Shown here: piece after piece, positions 17,545 to 53,982 of the stretch
Numbering within the stretch: the stretch's first letter is position 1
How the letters are laid out: every line of letters starts with the position of its first letter
Position numbers and translations under genes: made by a program
Origin: Kiritimatiellia bacterium
GTDB lineage: Bacteria; Verrucomicrobiota; Kiritimatiellia; RFP12; UBA1067
Reading direction: 5' to 3'
Assembly: GCA_034003585.1 (NCBI GenBank)
Contig: JAVEYH010000006.1
Location: forward strand, 10,177-74,176
DNA: 64,000 nt
The notes under the pieces: model-generated
Database searches by the model: none
What the model was told of the DNA's origin: nothing
What the model saw: only the letters and a program-made list of their open reading frames with translations

Positions 17545-17586
17545 GGGTTGTCCGCGCGCCGGTTGCGCGGCACGGAGGAACGGTTG

Positions 17587-18423
17587 ATGCAGGGGTTCAC
17601 ACAGCCGGAAGCGATGCGGCAATGGTCGGAGGAACAGCGCCGCGCAGGCAGGCGGATCGGGTTTGTGCCGACCATGGGGGCGCTGCACGCGGGGCATCTG
17701 TCGCTCATCGCGGAGGCGCGGCGGCGGACGGATGTCGTGGTGGTGAGTCTTTTCGTGAATCCGGTCCAGTTCGGGCCGAACGAGGATTTCGAAAAATATC
17801 CGCGCGACGAGGCGCGCGATCTCGCGTGCTGCCGGGGGGCGGGGGCCGACGCGGTGTTTCTGCCGCCGGTCGCGGTGATGTACGCGCCGGACGCCAGCGT
17901 GTTCGTGGAGGAGGAGCGCCTCTCCCGCGGGTTGTGCGGCGCCCGGCGCCCGGGACACTTCCGGGGGGTATGCACCGTGGTGGCGAAGCTGTTCCACATC
18001 GTGTTGCCGCATGTGGCGGTGTTCGGTCAGAAGGACTATCAGCAGGCCGCGGTGATCCGGCGCATGGTGCGCGATCTGGATTTTCCGGTCGAGGTGGCGG
18101 TCGCGCCGATCGTCCGCGAACCGGACGGCCTGGCGATGAGCTCGCGGAATGTGTATTTGACGGGAGAGGAACGGCAGCGCGCGCTGGGGTTGAGCCGCGC
18201 GCTGCACGCGGCGGCCGTCGCGGTGGCCGCGGGGCCCTGCGGCGCCGACGCGGTGCGGCGGCGCATGACGGAAGTGCTGAGGGAGCACGCGCTGGAGATC
18301 GATTACGTGGAGATCGCGGACCCCGAGACGCTGGAGCCGGTGGGGGAGGCGCGGCAGGGGATGGTGGCGCTGGTCGCGGTCTTTTGCGGGAAAACGCGGC
18401 TGATCGACAACCGGGTGCTGTGA
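17587..18423 (+). CDS. panC: Pantoate--beta-alanine ligase
   Basis: FVPTMGALHAGH, FVNPVQFGPNEDFEKYPR, RPGHFRGV, FGQKDYQQ, DGLAMSSRN, TRLIDN. Confidence 0.96.
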   Translation: MQGFTQPEAMRQWSEEQRRAGRRIGFVPTMGALHAGHLSLIAEARRRTDVVVVSLFVNPVQFGPNEDFEKYPRDEARDLACCRGAGADAVFLPPVAVMYAPDASVFVEEERLSRGLCGARRPGHFRGVCTVVAKLFHIVLPHVAVFGQKDYQQAAVIRRMVRDLDFPVEVAVAPIVREPDGLAMSSRNVYLTGEERQRALGLSRALHAAAVAVAAGPCGADAVRRRMTEVLREHALEIDYVEIADPETLEPVGEARQGMVALVAVFCGKTRLIDNRVL

Positions 18424-18457: not shown

Positions 18458-19318
18458 ATGGCGGAGACCGTTCTGACGGACAAGGAACAACGGCTGCATG
18501 CGTTGCTGAGAGGGTACGGCCGGGTGGCGGTCGGGTTTTCGGGCGGGGTGGACAGTACGCTGCTGCTGCGCGTCGCGCGGGATGTGCTGGGGCCGGAAGC
18601 GGTGCTGGCGGTGATTGCCGATACGCCGAGTTTGCCGCGCAACGAGTTCGCCGCGGCGCGCGCGCTGGCCGACGCGATGGGGGTGGCGTTCGTGGTGATT
18701 GATCCTGCCGAACTGGACGACCCCCGGTATGCGGAAAACTCCGCGGACCGCTGTTATTACTGCAAGAAGCATCTTTTCGCGCGGATTGCCGCACTCGCGT
18801 CGGAACAGGGATACACCGCGGTCCTCGACGGGAACAATGCGGATGACGCGGGCGATTACCGGCCCGGCCGGCGCGCCGCGGCGGAACTGGGCGTGAAGAG
18901 CCCGCTGGCGGAGGCGGGGCTGACGAAAGAGGAGGTCCGCGCGCTGTCGCGTCGGCTGGATCTGCCCACGGCGGAGAAACCGGCCATGGCCTGTCTCGCG
19001 TCGCGCATCCCCTACGGGTCGCCCGTGACGGCCGAGGCGCTGGGGCGGGTGGAGCGCGCCGAAGAGGCGCTGAAGGCCGCGGGCTTCGAGGTCTGCCGTG
19101 TGCGCCATCACGGCGAGGTCGCGCGGATCGAGGTCGCGGCCTCCGCGCTGCCCCGGCTGCTGGAGGAGCCGCTTCGCGAAGCCGTGGTGGCGGGCGTGAA
19201 AGCGGCGGGATTCCGGTATGTGACCCTCGATCTGCAGGGATACCGCATGGGAAGCCTCAACGCGTCGCTTCCCGGAGCGTCTCGACGCGGCGGCGCGCCG
19301 GATGCCGCCGTCCGGTGA
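18458..19318 (+). CDS. larE: ATP-dependent sacrificial sulfur transferase (nickel-pincer cofactor biosynthesis)
   Basis: PP-loop GFSGGVDS, RCYYCK, DGNNADD..DYRPG, PAMACLASRIPYG, VRHHG, VTLDLQGYRMGSLN. Confidence 0.88.
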   Translation: MAETVLTDKEQRLHALLRGYGRVAVGFSGGVDSTLLLRVARDVLGPEAVLAVIADTPSLPRNEFAAARALADAMGVAFVVIDPAELDDPRYAENSADRCYYCKKHLFARIAALASEQGYTAVLDGNNADDAGDYRPGRRAAAELGVKSPLAEAGLTKEEVRALSRRLDLPTAEKPAMACLASRIPYGSPVTAEALGRVERAEEALKAAGFEVCRVRHHGEVARIEVAASALPRLLEEPLREAVVAGVKAAGFRYVTLDLQGYRMGSLNASLPGASRRGGAPDAAVR

Positions 19319-24807: not shown

Positions 24808-26304
24808 TTACACCGTGTAGGTCGAAGCGGCGGTGTTGCCTCCGCTCTCCGTCCAAATATGATGGTAGAACTCGCCGCGCGGCTTGTCAACACGTTCGTA
24901 GGTGTGCGCGCCGAAATAGTCCCGTTGCGCCTGCAGCAGGTTGGCCGGCAGGCGGGCGCTGCGGTAGGCGTCGAAGTAGTTGAGCGCGGTGCTCATGGCC
25001 GGCACCGGGATGCCGAGATCGACAGCCGTCTTGATGACCGCGCGCCAGGCGTTCTGGGCCTTGGCGATGACCTTTTTGAAGTATGGGTCAAGCATCAGGT
25101 TGGCGAGTTGCGGATCGGCGTCGAACGCCTCCTTGATCTTGCCCAGGAACCGGGCGCGGATGATGCAGCCCTGACGCCACACCAGCGCGATCTCGCCGTA
25201 GTTCAGATCCCATTTGTACTCGGCTGCCGCCGCGCGCAGCAACTGGTAGCCTTGCGCGTACGAGCAGATCTTCGAGGCATAGACCGCCTGTTCGAGCTGT
25301 TTGACGAAAAGCTTTGTGTCGACCTTCGCCTTGGCGGCCGGCCCCTTGAGGACCTTCGCGGCCGCGACACGTTCTTCCTTGATCGCCGAGAGGCAGCGCG
25401 CGAACACCGCCTCCGCGATCTGCGGGATCGCCACGCCCAGATCGAGACCGGCCTGCGAGGTCCACTTGCCCGTGCCCTTCTGCCCGGCCGTATCGAGGAT
25501 CACGTCCACCATCGGCTTGCCCGTCATCTCATCGTACTGCGAGAGGATGTCCGCCGAGATATCGATCAGGTAGCTGTCGAGGTCACCCTTGTTCCACTTG
25601 GCGAAGACCTTCTGCATCTCTTTGGCGCTCATGCCCAGGCCGCGCGCCATCAGGTCGTACGCCTCGCAGGTAAGCTGCATGTCGCCGTACTCGATGCCGT
25701 TATGCACCATCTTCACGAAGTGGCCGGCGCCGTCACTGCCGATCCACGCGCAGCAGGGGGAACCGTCATCCACCTTCGCCGCGATGTCCTGGAAAACACT
25801 CTTCACATGCGGCCACGCCTTGGCATCGCCGCCAGGCATGATCGCGGGGCCCAAGAGCGCGCCCTCTTCGCCGCCCGACACGCCGGTGCCGATGAAACGC
25901 AGGCCCTTCTCAGCCAGATATTTTGTGCGGCGGATGGTGTCGGGGAAATGGCTGTTGCCGCCGTCGATGATGATGTCGCCCTTCTCCAGCACCGGCAGCA
26001 GAGACTCGATTGTCTCGTCCACGGCCTTGCCGGCCTTGACCATCATCATCACGCGGCGGGGCTTCTTGAGGCTTGCGGCCAACTCTTTCAGCGAGTGGCA
26101 GCCGATCAATTTCTTGCCCGCGCCGCGGCCGTCCACGAAGGCGTCGACCTTCGCCACCGTGCGGTTGAAGCAGGCCACGGTGTAGCCCTTGCTCTCCATG
26201 TTGAGAATGAGGTTCTCGCCCATCACCGCCAGTCCGATGAGCCCGATGTCCGCCTTCTTTGTCTTTTTGGCGGCCGGGGCCGCCTTCGTCACTTTCTTCG
26301 CCAT
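24808..26304 (-). CDS. gnd: NADP-dependent 6-phosphogluconate dehydrogenase (decarboxylating)
   Basis: [71 protein letters not shown]. Confidence 0.97.
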
Positions 26305-26323
26305 GGTCGTTTTTCCTTTGGAT

Positions 26324-26402
26324 TCGAGTGGGTCGAGTAAACCGATTGAATCGAGTCTCGAATCTGCCGAATCTTTCGATTCCCCCGATTCTTTCGATAA
26401 AA
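26324..26402. repeat. Degenerate 9-mer tandem repeat (about 9 units ending TCGA/TCGG on the minus strand)
   Basis: Minus strand reads ttttatcga aagaatcgg gggaatcga aagattcgg cagattcga gactcga ttcaatcgg tttactcga cccactcga. Confidence 0.7.
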
Positions 26403-26413
26403 CCGGCGGCACG

Positions 26414-27271
26414 TCACACGCCGCTGTAGGCCGAGAAGCCTCCGTCGATCGGCACCACCACGCCGGTCACGAAGCCGGCCGCCCGGTCCGAGACCAGCCA
26501 CAGCAGCGCGCCGATCAGGTCGTCCGGCTCGCCGAAATGGCCCATCGGCGTGTGCGCCAGGATCTTTTCGGAGCGCGGGGTCATCGACCCGTCCGGGTGG
26601 GTCAGCAGCGCGCGGTTCTGATCGGTCAGGAAGAAGCCCGGCGCGATCGCGTTGACGCGGATGCCGGCCTTGGCCATGTGCACCGCCATCCACTGCGTGA
26701 AGTTGCTGACCGCCGCCTTGGCCGCGCTGTAGGCCGGGATTTTGGTGAGCGGGCGGAAGGCGTTCATTGAGGAAACGTTGATCACCACGCCGGCCCGGCC
26801 GAGCGCCATCCGTTTGGTAAAGGCCTGCGTAGGCAACAGCGTGCCGAGAAAATTGAGGTTGAAGACGAACTCGATGCCCTTGGGGTCCAGGTCGTAGAAG
26901 GTCACGAAATCGCGGTTCTCCTTCAGCAGGTCATCGGGGTTCAGGTACTCCATGGCGGTCGTGCCTTTGGGATGGTTGCCGCCCGCGCCGTTGATCAGGA
27001 TCGCGACCGGGCCGAGCGTCGCCTCGATCTGCGCGTTGGCCGCTTCGAGACTCTCCTTCTCCAGCGCGTTGCAGGCCACGGCCATGGCCTTGCCGCCCGC
27101 CGCCGTGATCTCGTCCGCCACGCGCTGCGCGGACTCCAGCTTGAGGTCCGCCACGGCCACCGCCGCACCGCATTCCGCCAACGCCTTGGCCATCGCGCTG
27201 CACAGCACGCCGCCACCGCCGGTCACCACCGCCACCTTGCCGCTCAAATCCACCTTAAAGGGAAGCGCCAT
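26414..27271 (-). CDS. uxuB: SDR oxidoreductase, D-mannonate oxidoreductase (fructuronate reductase) type
   Basis: [66 protein letters not shown] match the SDR-type UxuB family. Confidence 0.75.
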
Positions 27272-27338
27272 GATGCTATCCTTTCCTTAACCATACCCTT
27301 AATCAAACAGAAAACATCGCTCAAGAAGAGGTGAGTGA

Positions 27339-28235
27339 TTATTGCCGTGCTGCTGGCGCGTTCAAAACAACCGCATGCCCCATGTGATTTTCCACGATTT
27401 TGACAGCCGGAGCAGCCGAGAACGTATGCATATATGCATGATGAATGGTCAAAACCAAATCCTGCAAGGCGTTGTCATTTTCTAACATTGAAATTTTCAG
27501 GCCAAATGATTTTGCTTCGTCTGCATGGATGTGCCGCGCATGCATTTTCGTGTCGGCATGATTATTCAACTTGGCGACAATATTTTTTGCCTTAACCGCC
27601 GCATCCTTCTCACCACAAAACATGCCGGTTCTCAGCCATTTCTCAACAATATCACTGGCAAGCTCTATGGCATTCCGACATTCTCCAACGAATGTCGGAT
27701 GATATTTGCCGATAATGACCTGCCATATGGGGATGCTAGCCGGATCTTTTTTGATTGCCTCGATCGCCTCTTGGAATTCAGCGATGACACCGTGTGCGGG
27801 AATCCCTCCGAATTGGGGATCGATCGGACCAATATTTGACTCCTTTCCCATATAGATTTCTCTGCACGCACAGGCGATCATTGTTCCGCCTGACATGGCC
27901 AATTGCGGGATGAAACAGCGAATATTCGTACCGAACATACTATGCAGATAATCCACCATGGATTCGGTCGCCGCAAAATCTCCCCCGGGGGTGTGCAGAA
28001 ACAGATCGAGCCCTTTTGCCCTATCCAAACCGTGTATGGCATTCATGAAGCCGTTTTTATCAAGGTCGGAAATAGAACATACAGCTAGACTCGGCTTCTG
28101 CAACCATCCTGAATAGTAGGTGATAATATTCCGACCCGTGGTCTGATGCAATTGGCTCAAGTATTTTCGACGGACACGATCAAGTCCGCCTTCACACGTC
28201 TGAATCTCATTGAGGACACTTGCCCAGTTTGGCAT
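27339..28235 (-). CDS. SDH-family ClpP-fold serine protease (S49-like)
   Basis: LFLHTPGG, AMSGGTMIACAC (Ser), GPIDPQ (Asp), HARHI (His): Ser-Asp-His order; no signal peptide. Confidence 0.85.
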   Translation of the reverse strand: MPNWASVLNEIQTCEGGLDRVRRKYLSQLHQTTGRNIITYYSGWLQKPSLAVCSISDLDKNGFMNAIHGLDRAKGLDLFLHTPGGDFAATESMVDYLHSMFGTNIRCFIPQLAMSGGTMIACACREIYMGKESNIGPIDPQFGGIPAHGVIAEFQEAIEAIKKDPASIPIWQVIIGKYHPTFVGECRNAIELASDIVEKWLRTGMFCGEKDAAVKAKNIVAKLNNHADTKMHARHIHADEAKSFGLKISMLENDNALQDLVLTIHHAYMHTFSAAPAVKIVENHMGHAVVLNAPAARQ

Positions 28236-28237
28236 AG

Positions 28238-28444
28238 CTAAACTCCCGCGTGGGCGGTTGTCGTGATCGAACAATTCTCAAGGAGCGTGCAACGCTTGAA
28301 CGTGCGAGAAAACTCAAGTGGCGTTGTGTAACTTGTTTTCCCGAGATCCTCCAAACGCAACTGCTTGAATCCCGCAGCTATCTTCGCGTCAGTGAGTTCT
28401 TTTGTCTGGCGCACACATTTGCGTGTCTGACCTTGACGTTTCAT
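28238..28444 (-). CDS. Small hypothetical protein (68 aa), probably co-transcribed with the protease
   Basis: GGAG SD 8 nt before the ATG, stop 2 nt before the protease ATG, promoter upstream. Confidence 0.6.
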   Translation of the reverse strand: MKRQGQTRKCVRQTKELTDAKIAAGFKQLRLEDLGKTSYTTPLEFSRTFKRCTLLENCSITTTAHAGV

Positions 28445-28483
28445 AATCCAAGTCTCCGGTTTTGGTTGCTCATTTTGACACCC

Positions 28484-29800
28484 TTAGGCAATTACGTTGC
28501 TTTCGATCATAGCACCTTCGCCGTTTGAAGTGAATCTCTCCCGCACGGACCAGAGGCCGAGCGCGGGGTTGCTGATGAAGAAAATCTCCTCGCCGTCGGG
28601 CATGACGTTCACGCCGTCCTTCAGGTTTTCGGGATTGTAGCGCGCCATCATCGCCCGCACGTCGGCGTACGCGAAGCCCGCGCCCTCGATTTCCGCGCGC
28701 GTCAGATGCCCCGGCGCGTAGGTGATGGTGAAGCGGCCTTCGGAGGAGCCGTGGATCAGGTGCGCCGCCGCGCCCAGGTTCTCCCGCAGGTCGGCGTTCT
28801 CCTTTACCGCCGCCAGCGTGCGCGGCGTGCCGAAGTAGCCGTACTTGCGGATCAGCGCGTCGATCTGGGCGTCCTCGCCGAACTCTTTCACGCCCGGCGC
28901 GAGGATCAGCAGCTCGCCGCCGTCGGCCATCGCCATGCGCGTGCGGTAGACGGCCTTGTTGCCGAGCCAGGTGCTCTTGAACTCGGCGGGATCGAGGTAG
29001 ACCACGCATTTCCTGAAAGGCTTCGGCACCATCTCGAAGTTGACCTCGAGCGCCAGCGCCGCGGCGCGGTTGAAGACCTCGATGTCGTCGCCGACATAAA
29101 GCCCGCGCACCGCCATACCGCCGCCGTCGGCGCGGCCCACGACCGTCTGCGCGTACACGGTCTGCGGCAGCAGGTGGCCGAAGTGGTCGGAGCCGTAATT
29201 GAAGAGCCGGCGCACCGGCGTGTCGGCGCGCCCCATGATGCGCTCCATGCCGTAGACCGCGCCCACGAAGTGGCTGCGGTTGATCGCCACGGCGCCGCCG
29301 GTGCCCACGAACACGTTTTTGTTGTAGTTGGCCATGCCGATCACCTCGTGCGGCACGACCTGGCCGATCGAGAGGATCAGGTCGAAGCCGCCCTCGACCA
29401 GCAGCCGGTTGACCTGCACCGGCCAGTCGAAGTCCAGCTTGCCTTCCGTGACCTCGCGCACGTACTCCGGCGGCACGGTGCCCAGCGTCACCACATCATT
29501 CCGCCAGTCGTGGGGCTTGAAAAGCGAAAGCGGCATCGCGCCGAACATCTCGCGGAGCTGCGCCCCGGTCATCGGCGAATGGGTCCCCAGCGCCGGCAGC
29601 ACGGCGGCCAGCCGGTCGCCGTAATACTCCCACACGTATTGGGTCAGCAGGCCGGCCTGCGAGTGGAACCGGGTGAAGTCCGGCGGCAGCGCCAGCACCT
29701 TGTTGCGCGGGCCCAGCCGGTCGAGGGCCTCAAAGAGTCCTTGTTTCAGCCGCGTGCGGTCGAGCGCGCCGGACTTCGAGCCGCATTCAAAGTATAACAT
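28484..29800 (-). CDS. LarA-family (DUF2088) alpha-hydroxyacid racemase/epimerase; candidate D-mannonate/D-gluconate 2-epimerase
   Basis: LPPDFTR (DxTR), VVPHEVIGMANYNKN (the PH...K motif of LarA homologs); specificity inferred from the uxuB and gnd neighbours. Confidence 0.75.
   Translation of the reverse strand: MLYFECGSKSGALDRTRLKQGLFEALDRLGPRNKVLALPPDFTRFHSQAGLLTQYVWEYYGDRLAAVLPALGTHSPMTGAQLREMFGAMPLSLFKPHDWRNDVVTLGTVPPEYVREVTEGKLDFDWPVQVNRLLVEGGFDLILSIGQVVPHEVIGMANYNKNVFVGTGGAVAINRSHFVGAVYGMERIMGRADTPVRRLFNYGSDHFGHLLPQTVYAQTVVGRADGGGMAVRGLYVGDDIEVFNRAAALALEVNFEMVPKPFRKCVVYLDPAEFKSTWLGNKAVYRTRMAMADGGELLILAPGVKEFGEDAQIDALIRKYGYFGTPRTLAAVKENADLRENLGAAAHLIHGSSEGRFTITYAPGHLTRAEIEGAGFAYADVRAMMARYNPENLKDGVNVMPDGEEIFFISNPALGLWSVRERFTSNGEGAMIESNVIA
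28506..28534 (-). promoter_or_regulatory. sigma70-type promoter of the small ORF-protease islet
   Basis: Minus strand TTCACT-17 bp-TATGAT with a TG extended -10, lying inside the last codons of the upstream LarA-family ORF. Confidence 0.55.
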
Positions 29801-51176: not shown

Positions 51177-51794
51177 ATGGCGATCATTAGAAACGTGGTT
51201 TCCGAAGAAGGATTTAACACCGACCTCGCGCTACCGTTCGAGTTGCGTTTGGCTGATTTCCGTTTGGCCGTCCAAGACGTATATGATTTCTTCTTCGACG
51301 TAAATTCAACGTTACAAACGAAAGGGTTGCAGCGTTTGGATGACATGTTACGTCCGGCCATTATGTCAGGCGTCCTGTCGGATATGTTGACGGCAAGTCT
51401 TGCTAAGCATTCGCGTTCGTTGTGTGAGAACAAATATTTTAACGGGCATCCGGATTTAATTGTTCGAGGTGTGTATTCCGACAACGCTGTGAAGGCTGGC
51501 GATCAGGGCGTTGAAATTAAAACGACCCGCAAAAGCGGTGGTGCCGTAGATACGCATGGTGCACGGAATCAGTGGATGTGCGTGTTCGTTTATGAGGTGG
51601 ATGATCAGACTGAACCGGCAACGCAACGAAAGCCTATGACCATAACTGAAATCTACCTTGGGCATGTTGCCGTGGATGATTTTAGAAAAAATGCCCGAGG
51701 CGAATTAGGAACCCGCACCGCCACGTTGCATAAAGACGGGATTGCGAAACTCAGAGAGAGTTGGGTCTATCGACGCCCCTTGCATCGCGCTTGA
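51177..51794 (+). CDS. Putative PD-(D/E)XK Type II restriction endonuclease
   Basis: GHPDL...GVEIKTT nuclease-like motif, convergent with a DNA methyltransferase, atypical composition. Confidence 0.7.
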   Translation: MAIIRNVVSEEGFNTDLALPFELRLADFRLAVQDVYDFFFDVNSTLQTKGLQRLDDMLRPAIMSGVLSDMLTASLAKHSRSLCENKYFNGHPDLIVRGVYSDNAVKAGDQGVEIKTTRKSGGAVDTHGARNQWMCVFVYEVDDQTEPATQRKPMTITEIYLGHVAVDDFRKNARGELGTRTATLHKDGIAKLRESWVYRRPLHRA

Positions 51795-52955
51795 AAAGGG
51801 GTGCTTGTCTGTCACACAACCCGCTAGTTTCGCCACGGATTCACAGGCCAGTCTGAAATAGGCCTTATCTTTTTCGGTTCCCATGCTTTCGTACCCGACG
51901 GCTTCCGCCGCCGCAAGGGTCGATCCCGAGCCCGCGAACGTGTCGACCACGACGCCTTTTCCGAGTGGTAAAACCGCTCTGACAAGTTGGCGGAGAAAAG
52001 CTTGCGGTTTGAGGCTTGGGTGCGGCGCAAGTTCACGCTCTGTTTTGCGTGTGGGTGCTGATTCGATCACGTCGCCGAACGGTTTGTCTTTCTCCGGTCG
52101 GCGGAATCCGCCGGTTCCCCATATACGCAGATTGTCTTGGGCACGCCCTTGAAGCGGTTTACGGTAGATCAACCACGGTTCCCACATGGAGCGCGGCATG
52201 ACGCTGACATCCGAGAACTCTTCATGCGCGGCCTTGGGTCGGTCTCCACCGCGCATGGTCATCGTCAGGCGAATCAATTCGCCGCGCCGCTCGAGTCCCG
52301 CATCGGCCAATGCTTGCGATACAATGTATGACAAAAGCGGATTGGACGCCACAATCACGTTTGCCCCCGGAACCAGTTTGGGAAGAAGGGCGCGGCCCCA
52401 TCGCGTAAAGAACGCTCTGAGTTCTCGCAATTGCTCGGGTGAGAGGATTGTAAAGCGGGGGAGCGGCGCACGCTGATGTCCGTCGAACGATGGCGGAATT
52501 CGCCAGACACCGCCTTTGCCTTCCCGCAGTTTTGCGACTTGTTCTTTTGAGTATTCGAAAAGGCCGTAGGGTGGGTCAGTGACGACGGCGTGAAGGCTGT
52601 GGTTGTCTCGGCTTTCTAACCAACCAAAACAATCGGCGTGAAACAGAGTGGCGAATCGACCGACTTTTTTATGCGGGAATTCATCGGCCGCTCGAATCTT
52701 GGTCTCAACAGGCTCAGCAAATCCGGGAAATGTCGGGGCACACGAATAGAAGCCGCGCGACTCTCGAACGAAGAGGTCCGGTGTGTTGAGCCGAAGGTAG
52801 GAGCGCACGGAGGATGTGGACACGCCTCCGAGTCGTAGTCGTACGGCGTCCGATATTTCGGCGACGGAGAGCGGTCGTTGCGCTGTCTTAACGGTATCAA
52901 GAATGGCGTCGCGAACTTGGCCCGGCGCCTTTCTTGCCTTTGCGTCGTAATTCAT
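51705..52955 (-). CDS. Beta-class amino (m6A or m4C) DNA methyltransferase with an N-terminal winged-HTH-like domain
   Basis: Motif IV VTDPPY precedes HPSLKP and motif I VVDTFAGSGST (beta order); ~75-aa N-terminal extension with an HTH-wing pattern. Confidence 0.88.
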   Translation of the reverse strand: MNYDAKARKAPGQVRDAILDTVKTAQRPLSVAEISDAVRLRLGGVSTSSVRSYLRLNTPDLFVRESRGFYSCAPTFPGFAEPVETKIRAADEFPHKKVGRFATLFHADCFGWLESRDNHSLHAVVTDPPYGLFEYSKEQVAKLREGKGGVWRIPPSFDGHQRAPLPRFTILSPEQLRELRAFFTRWGRALLPKLVPGANVIVASNPLLSYIVSQALADAGLERRGELIRLTMTMRGGDRPKAAHEEFSDVSVMPRSMWEPWLIYRKPLQGRAQDNLRIWGTGGFRRPEKDKPFGDVIESAPTRKTERELAPHPSLKPQAFLRQLVRAVLPLGKGVVVDTFAGSGSTLAAAEAVGYESMGTEKDKAYFRLACESVAKLAGCVTDKHPFSSAMQGASIDPTLSEFRNPVFMQRGGAGS

Positions 52956-52962
52956 GGCGCAC

Positions 52963-52991
52963 AGGTTAGACGTCTGGACGTCTTTTGTCAA
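52963..52991 (-). promoter_or_regulatory. sigma70 promoter of the methyltransferase with two GACGTC palindromes in the spacer
   Basis: Minus strand TTGACA-aaaGACGTCcaGACGTC-TAACCT-gtgcgcc-ATG; 17-bp spacer; ATG 7 nt after the -10, no SD. Confidence 0.85.
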
Positions 52992-53043
52992 GGAAACTGC
53001 CACTCGTGATCCACACGCCGGGGCCGGTGTGGCACGGCGGTTG

Positions 53044-53982
53044 TCACAGCCGCTCGCACGCCACGGCCCGGCACAGGGCGCGCGCGCGGCGGGCGTCAAA
53101 CGCGGCGGGTGTCAGGGTTTCGGCGTTGGCGCTCCCGCACGCCAGGCCCAGCCGCACGGCTTCGGGCAGCCGTTTGCCGCGCAGCAGCGCGTGCGCGATG
53201 CCGGCGGTCGTGCAGTCGCCGCTGCCGATGGGGTTCACGCGCTCGCGGATCGCGGGCGGGGTGAAGCGCCATGCGGCACGGGGCGTCAGCAGATAGGCGG
53301 CGCGGCCGCCCTGGGTCACGAAGACGTTGGCGGCCCCCAGGTTCAGCAGGTCCCGCATGCCGCGCAGGATGCGCGCCTCCGTGTTCAGGGTCTCGCCAAG
53401 CGTGGCCGCCAGCTCCGGCACATTCAGTTTGGCCAGCAGCGGCTGTTCGAACAAAACCTGGATCAGCGCCGTGCGGTGCGAATCGATCACCACCGGGACT
53501 CCGGCGGCGCGCGCGGCGCGCGCGAACGCCACGTAAAAATCATCCGGCGCGAAGGGCGGGAGCGTGCCACTGATGGCCAGCATGGCGGCGCCGGGAATCC
53601 GTTTCAAATTGTCCGCAACGAACCGGCGCAAGGCGGCGCGGCCGGGCGCGGGCGCCTCCTCCACCAGTTCGGTCACGGTCTTGGCCTGATTGTCGAGCAG
53701 GGTGGTGCAGAGTCGCGTGGGGGCGGGCATCGCCGTCATCCCGTCACCGACCCCGCACGGTTTCAGCATCGCGGCCACCCGTGCGCCGGTCGCGCCGCCG
53801 TTGAGTCCCGCCGTTACTGCGGGGGTGCCCAGGGTGACGAGGGCCCGCGCGGTGTTGAGCGCCTTGCCTGCGGCGCTTTCGGTGACCTCTTGCGCGCGGT
53901 TCACCTCATCCGGCGTGAGCCGGTCAAACCGGAGCGTGCGCTGCAGCACAGGGGACAATCCGAGGCAGAGGACTTTTTTCAT
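53044..53982 (-). CDS. PfkB-family sugar kinase (1-phosphofructokinase/LacC-like)
   Basis: AAGKALNTARAL, TRLCTT, ISGTLP, KLNVPEL, NPIGSGDCTTAG. Confidence 0.85.
   Translation of the reverse strand: MKKVLCLGLSPVLQRTLRFDRLTPDEVNRAQEVTESAAGKALNTARALVTLGTPAVTAGLNGGATGARVAAMLKPCGVGDGMTAMPAPTRLCTTLLDNQAKTVTELVEEAPAPGRAALRRFVADNLKRIPGAAMLAISGTLPPFAPDDFYVAFARAARAAGVPVVIDSHRTALIQVLFEQPLLAKLNVPELAATLGETLNTEARILRGMRDLLNLGAANVFVTQGGRAAYLLTPRAAWRFTPPAIRERVNPIGSGDCTTAGIAHALLRGKRLPEAVRLGLACGSANAETLTPAAFDARRARALCRAVACERL

Follow-up and report, generated by a model that had tools for sequence, protein, structure and literature searches.

The stretch examined here, referred to throughout as the window, comprises 64,000 nucleotides of an uncultured Kiritimatiellia bacterium (positions 10177-74176 of contig C6; assembly of 3.7 Mb, 95% complete) and carries three co-oriented genes encoding a LarA homologue, the short-chain dehydrogenase/reductase (SDR) UxuB and the 6-phosphogluconate dehydrogenase Gnd. 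The three genes probably constitute a conserved hexuronate catabolic module that feeds the pentose phosphate pathway, with the epimerase acting before the kinase. The case is built on gene identities, family membership, conserved catalytic and cofactor residues, linkage and partner genes, all of which were observed directly. An earlier annotation made from the letters alone (the sequence-only reading) had proposed that the three genes form a nickel-pincer branch leading from hexuronates to 6-phosphogluconate, and as far as sequence can tell this proposal is upheld: all three genes are real, lie on the minus strand and score above the cut-offs of their NCBIfam models. Published work already covers this group of enzymes, the function it probably has and the genes around it, and the route itself has been proposed before; the gain for the window is a corrected annotation in which the branch is complete and a candidate kinase is located.

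In the proposed route, UxaC would isomerise glucuronate and galacturonate, with UxaE epimerising on the galacturonate branch, to give fructuronate, which UxuB would then reduce to D-mannonate. The LarA homologue, assigned below to group 18, would invert C2 of D-mannonate via transient oxidation to the 2-keto acid and so produce D-gluconate, with nickel-pincer nucleotide (NPN) from LarB, LarE and LarC as its cofactor. C6 would be phosphorylated by a KdgK-like PfkB kinase, whose gene lies outside the window on contig C81, and Gnd would convert 6-phosphogluconate to ribulose-5-phosphate and CO2, restoring the reducing equivalent spent by UxuB. Most likely, the three genes channel uronic acids of the pectin type towards the pentose phosphate pathway. 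The substrate, the order of the steps, the use of the cofactor and expression are what we infer from the evidence presented here. For anaerobes that degrade polysaccharides, Kiritimatiellia among them, a module of this kind would be a redox-neutral route from uronic acids to pentose phosphate: the reductase uses one NAD(P)H and Gnd gives one back, a balance that the dehydratase route through 2-keto-3-deoxygluconate (KDG) does not offer.

The epimerase scored 641 bits against NF052594, the 'nickel-dependent putative hexonate epimerase' model (cut-off 500), with the next families at 28 bits or less, and Pfam Lar_N matched it at E=3e-8. Its start was set at the ATG at position 29800, which agrees with the N-termini of homologues of about 425 aa. 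Twenty-five groups of LarA homologues were defined by Desguin et al. 2020 (PMC7583248), and the published signature of group 18 consists of a loop in which E-V follows the second His (H-E-V), of W-L-x-N-K as part of helix 11 and of A-A-x-x-L-I-H-x-S as part of helix 14. The window enzyme carries PHEV, STWLGNK and AAAHLIHGSS in these places, as do the group-18 entries in the dataset of PMC7583248, which labels the group 'G2E3'. Residues D61, R64, H94, H171-E-V, K181, H197, W298-L-G-N-K302 and AAAHLIHGSS are all present, numbered by the 458-aa open reading frame (ORF). The catalytic and NPN-binding set of LarA (D72, R75, H108, H174, K184, H200, K298), the tethering Lys and the cofactor His included, is matched by D61, R64, H94, H171, K181, H197 and K302; these residues have spacings equal to those in LarA, are invariant in the alignment of relatives and align to PDB entry 4NAR.

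The structural comparison agreed with this assignment. When a profile of the epimerase and eleven relatives was searched against the PDB, 4NAR was the sole match (E=2.6e-48). The AlphaFold model (pLDDT 82, pTM 0.80) has the two-domain fold of LarA, and Foldseek again placed 4NAR first (E=2e-28, TM 0.73/0.79; 23% identity in the structural alignment), the top 16 PDB matches all belonging to the LarA family. The sequence-only reading had asked for a placement among the LarA homologue groups; judged by the curated NCBIfam model, by the signature known for the group and by its matches to 4NAR in sequence and structure, the enzyme is a clear member of group 18. In score, signature and published neighbour list it agrees with that group, and apart from a C-terminal tail derived from an insertion it shows no essential difference from other members.

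Groups 19 (C. glutamicum GntE1) and 20 (Thermotoga maritima GntE2, PDB 4NAR) epimerise D-mannonate to D-gluconate, and group 18 has loop (E-V/S) and helix-11 (W) features in common with them and is 'hypothesised to epimerise a hexonate' (PMC7583248). The eukaryotic GntE of LarAH15 has measured D-mannonate/D-gluconate 2-epimerase activity (PMC11770544). The window enzyme is described here as a putative hexonate C2 epimerase that would work with NPN. The published genomic context of 25 group-18 members includes SDR (36%), 6-phosphogluconate dehydrogenase (32%) and a ribokinase-family kinase (16%), together with MFS, glucuronate isomerase (UxaC) and KduI (PMC7583248).

The SDR scored 429 bits against NF006132 ('D-mannonate oxidoreductase'; cut-off 281) and is 49% identical to a second copy encoded in a classical operon on contig C39. 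Gnd scored 748 bits against TIGR00873 (cut-off 427) and is encoded by a single-copy gene, the start of which was fixed by alignment to the 93%-identical relative at locus L114. The cluster extends from the gnd stop at 24808 to the start of the LarA homologue and would be transcribed in the order LarA homologue, a low-GC insertion (hereafter the islet), SDR and gnd (Table 1). As the sequence-only reading had stated, larE is found near the cluster; it scored 342 bits against TIGR00268 (cut-off 150) and is encoded on the opposite strand, roughly 5.5 kb past gnd and outside the operon. This proximity carries no weight; larB, larC and the canonical larA are scattered on other contigs.

Table 1. Features of the window discussed in the text (columns: feature, positions in the window, strand, basis)
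LarA-superfamily group-18 enzyme, 438 aa, putative NPN-dependent D-mannonate/D-gluconate 2-epimerase	28484-29800	-	NF052594
Low-GC insertion (islet), ~1.2 kb	~27290-28530	-	GC contrast, absence from closest relatives
68-aa ORF of the islet	28238-28444		translation
SDH/ClpP-fold serine protease gene of the islet	27339-28235		translation; PF01972
SDR-type fructuronate reductase / D-mannonate oxidoreductase (UxuB, YjmF type), 285 aa	26414-27271	-	NF006132
Terminator-like hairpin at the uxuB stop	26424-26406		
uxuB-gnd spacer	26305-26413	-	sequence, comparison with L114
NADP-dependent decarboxylating 6-phosphogluconate dehydrogenase (Gnd), 498 aa	24808-26304	-	TIGR00873
LarE, sulfur-insertion enzyme of nickel-pincer cofactor synthesis	18458-19318	+	TIGR00268
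panC, adjoining larE	17548-18423		
1-phosphofructokinase-like PfkB protein	53044-53982	-	TIGR03168
N6/N4 DNA methylase gene	51705-53099	-	

To analyze the conservation of the gene neighbourhood, 80 species-representative loci were fetched and their ORFs clustered without prior labels, which recovered the epimerase ORF in 72 loci from Bacteroidota, Verrucomicrobiota, Planctomycetota, Acidobacteriota, Ignavibacteriota and others. Many loci end at contig ends, and the following counts are therefore lower bounds. Neighbours were a UxuB-type SDR in 48 of the 72 loci, gnd in 43, and UxaC, the tagaturonate epimerase UxaE and a LacI regulator in 29 each, followed by PdxB (27) and a GFO/MocA oxidoreductase (20). 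A KdgK-like PfkB kinase of 358 aa is located directly upstream of the epimerase on the same strand in 42 of the 72. Among 40 metagenome loci collected independently, all with 3 kb or more of sequence to both sides, Gnd and the SDR each occurred in 32, the PfkB kinase in 25 and UxaE in 17. The PdxB genes (4-phosphoerythronate dehydrogenase, above the NF001309 cut-off) and the GFO/IDH/MocA genes stand between the epimerase and gnd, for example at L119, L120, L122 and L124 and in many Bacteroidota.

Apart from the kinase, the recurrent neighbours are the enzymes that make up the Thermotoga shunt. That shunt, UxaC-UxaE-UxuB-GntE2 (LarAH20, PDB 4NAR)-GntK-Gnd in T. maritima, was put forward by Rodionova 2012 (cited in PMC7583248 and PMC6978723). 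It resembles the window genome in its logic and its set of enzymes (isomerase, tagaturonate epimerase, reductase, LarA-type 2-epimerase, kinase and Gnd). The differences are threefold: the Thermotoga epimerase belongs to another LarA group (20 rather than 18), although it provides the nearest solved structure; its operon contains GntK, whereas the window genome has the KdgK-like PfkB protein; and its genes form one regulon locus, whereas those of the window genome are scattered.

We regard it as very improbable that the adjacency of gnd is incidental, with the LarA homologue and the SDR acting on another hydroxy acid or hexonate and Gnd being a housekeeping enzyme. The single copy of gnd in a genome that has zwf speaks for this explanation, the native substrate of group 19 has been questioned by its own authors (PMC7583248), and the clusters repeatedly include genes for PdxB and a GFO/MocA oxidoreductase that have no evident function there. 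Against this stands the linkage of gnd in both locus sets, in several phyla and alongside UxaC, UxaE and UxuB; moreover, the substrate of Gnd can be reached only via the C2 epimer of mannonate.

The window enzyme is 81-90% identical to the copy of genome G194 (L108) and to metagenome Kiritimatiellia copies (L113-L115), and 65-68% identical to copies from Bacteroidota, Planctomycetota and Acidobacteriota; the copies of sister genera of its own family (L109-L112, from genomes G068, G191, G149 and G041) reach only 54-55%. Two group-18 sub-branches with these identities within one family suggest, on sequence comparison, that the module has been transferred laterally.

In addition to the module, the window genome encodes the rest of the pathway. 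The sequence-only reading had noted that larB and larC lie outside the window; a search of the genome located LarB on C1 and LarC, with both domains, on C5, so that with LarE all three exceed their cut-offs, and a canonical lactate racemase is encoded on C13. The entry enzymes UxaC and UxaE are present twice (C33 and C39) and once (C20), respectively, and Eda and Zwf are encoded as well. The view that hexuronates bypass UxuA and KDG was not borne out, since UxuA is found in a separate classical operon on C39 (SSF transporter-UxaC-SDR-UxuA). With this operon present, the shunt is to be understood as a parallel branch, an addition to the dehydratase route and not its replacement.

No GntK/IdnK-type gluconokinase was found in the genome. 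Five FGGY kinases were considered for the role and rejected: each has xylulokinase as its best-scoring family and stays far below the cut-off for gluconokinase. The PfkB protein of the window, which the sequence-only reading had mentioned as a weak gluconate kinase candidate, was ruled out as the pathway kinase because it is of the 1-phosphofructokinase type (TIGR03168, 202 bits) and is related to the cluster kinase at the superfamily level only (E=0.012). Its gene adjoins an N6/N4 DNA methylase gene. An orthologue of the cluster kinase was located at C81:4004-5077, with 76% identity to a cluster member from Prolixibacteraceae (Bacteroidota), and judging from its sequence this KdgK-like PfkB protein is a candidate for the slot of the 'missing gluconate kinase'. 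The genome thus has larB, larC and a candidate kinase, the joint absence of which would have spoken against the branch.

The kinase was then surveyed in 201 sampled genomes of the phylum, where its matches fall into two populations, namely orthologues (at least 65% identity, more than 525 bits) and KdgK-like paralogues (about 35%, about 200 bits). Orthologues occur in 38 of the 201 genomes. Of the 46 genomes with the group-18 epimerase, 35 have the orthologue and 11 do not; among the 155 genomes without the epimerase, the orthologue is present in three and absent from 152. The resulting odds ratio is 161 for a sample in which related genomes are not independent, and many of the genomes have the epimerase and kinase genes side by side. 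Of the solved structures, the T. maritima KDG kinase 2AFB is nearest to the C81 kinase (E=7e-31). Both belong to the PfkB fold family, and like KdgK the C81 protein presumably phosphorylates C6 of a six-carbon sugar acid; its identity to the ordinary KdgK-like paralogues, which most genomes of the phylum encode, is no more than about 35%, it is co-inherited with the epimerase, and it stays below every NCBIfam equivalog cut-off. A canonical gluconokinase of the GntK type (168 bits, cut-off 114) takes the place of the PfkB protein in genome G169, inside an SDR-GntK-MFS-epimerase cluster, which argues that free gluconate is the intermediate.

As to the order of the two central steps, we consider it unlikely, though by a good deal the most credible of the alternatives, that the PfkB protein phosphorylates D-mannonate and that the group-18 enzyme is a 6-phosphomannonate/6-phosphogluconate 2-epimerase. 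Such an order has been described for Lactobacillus suebicus, whose entry (UxaC, UxaE, UxuB), exit (6-phosphogluconate, Gnd) and redox-neutral balance are those of the route proposed here and in which the kinase precedes the epimerase, the reverse of the favoured order (PMC6978723). Extracts of this organism made no gluconate from mannonate without ATP (Valk 2020, PMC6978723), and they formed 6-phosphomannonate, which they could turn into 6-phosphogluconate and back; the study demonstrated activities and assigned no genes to them. PMC6978723 is the only paper on these activities found in the literature searched. It is also consistent with this order that the kinase is a distinct subfamily and no canonical gluconokinase, that it directly precedes the epimerase in so many loci, and that the high Km of GntE enzymes for free mannonate leaves room for another true substrate. 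On the other side, groups 15, 19 and 20 epimerise free mannonate, G169 carries its GntK-type enzyme within the cluster, and no phosphate-binding site is identifiable from the sequence. Epimerisation before phosphorylation is in our estimate several times more likely. If phosphorylation came first, the substrates of a very widespread module (thousands of sequences, many phyla) would be sugar acids in phosphorylated form, and the name 'gluconate epimerase' would have to be reconsidered for the entire GntE branch.

The islet separates the epimerase gene from the SDR gene. Its GC content is 0.48 compared with 0.67 in the flanks, and it encodes a 68-aa ORF and a serine protease gene, both verified by translation. 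The protease matched Pfam PF01972 (E=2e-18) and scored 84 bits against NF047768, which is under the cut-off of that model; a search for it among known defence genes gave no PADLOC match. In the closest relatives, L113 (90% identity), L114 (87%) and L117 (78%), epimerase, SDR and gnd are contiguous with gaps of 26-81 nt, the islet is missing and the outer neighbours are identical. The islet is foreign and lies outside the pathway, and the operon has recently been split by this 1.2 kb insertion with its three reading frames intact. An imperfect 12-nt direct repeat at 27295 and 28480 flanks the islet and may be due to chance; a target-site duplication was looked for, and nothing beyond this repeat was found.

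The insertion starts within the last codons of the epimerase, whose native stop has been replaced, so that the protein has gained a tail of about 15 residues (SNGEGAMIESNVIA) that is disordered in the AlphaFold model and missing in relatives. That the module is decaying in this genome, its epimerase having acquired a different C-terminus through the insertion and lost its coupling to uxuB-gnd, so that the branch has ceased to function as a unit, is in our judgement hardly likely. The replaced stop and added tail, promoter-like hexamers of the insertion's own and the dispersal of the partner genes are compatible with decay. However, all three frames are intact with their catalytic residues, the tail starts past the last conserved residues, and the ribosome-binding site of uxuB is kept despite the insertion; since the islet genes are co-oriented with the operon, read-through is possible.

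In the spacer downstream of uxuB, which is about twice as long as that of the closest relative L114, an array of GAATCG/CGATTC-type words was found, and the terminator-like hairpin is located at the uxuB stop. Gnd itself has a Lys/Ala-rich N-terminal extension, which is longer still in L117.

Several points weigh against reading the three genes as a functional module of hexuronate catabolism. The literature searched, including PMC7583248 and PMC11770544, yielded no assay of any group-18 enzyme, and the characterised GntE enzymes have Km values for free mannonate of 9-120 mM (PMC11770544, PMC7583248). The C81 protein is no more than a putative pathway kinase, and it appears in public sources as 'sugar kinase' or KDG kinase. 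The partner genes are spread over at least five contigs; the shunt genes, on C6, C20, C33 and C81, do not form one co-regulated locus, no LacI gene adjoins them, and inspection, carried out without a motif finder, revealed no shared operator upstream of the epimerase, the C81 kinase, UxaC, UxaE and the C39 operon. With zwf in the genome and no second gnd, Gnd would also serve the ordinary oxidative pentose phosphate pathway. In addition, the insertion and the hairpin ahead of gnd could disturb co-transcription.

The distribution of the cofactor genes belongs to the same side of the balance. Among the 46 carriers of the epimerase in the phylum sample, 15 are without both LarB and LarC (G019, G037, G043, G061, G068, G073, G079, G091, G109, G148, G184, G190, G191, G193 and G196), and they are concentrated in three genera, one of which belongs to the family of the window genome. 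When five of these genomes were searched again at E<=0.001, no LarC was detected and the best LarE-like match reached 31 bits (cut-off 150). LarC is likewise missing from four of the 15 carriers in other phyla, including two chromosome-level assemblies. The phyletic pattern thus does not settle the cofactor dependence of the group. In the carriers lacking LarB and LarC, the epimerase is intact, keeps the tethering Lys and the cofactor His and is encoded in SDR-gnd-epimerase-kinase clusters; scavenging of the cofactor or another maturation route is possible. The window genome, which has all three Lar genes, is unaffected by this gap. Loci L082, L086 (from a chromosome-level Anaerohalosphaeraceae genome), L045 and L072 also belong to the set of carriers lacking LarB and LarC, and the literature searched treats LarB/C/E without LarA, and not a LarA-type enzyme without LarB/C.

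Both proteins of the proposed central steps have more than 8000 close relatives, and the family is very common in environmental genomes. In databases, the epimerase mostly goes under 'lactate racemase domain protein' and the kinase under 'KDG kinase'; in one public record, a close relative of the epimerase is named 'D-mannonate epimerase'.

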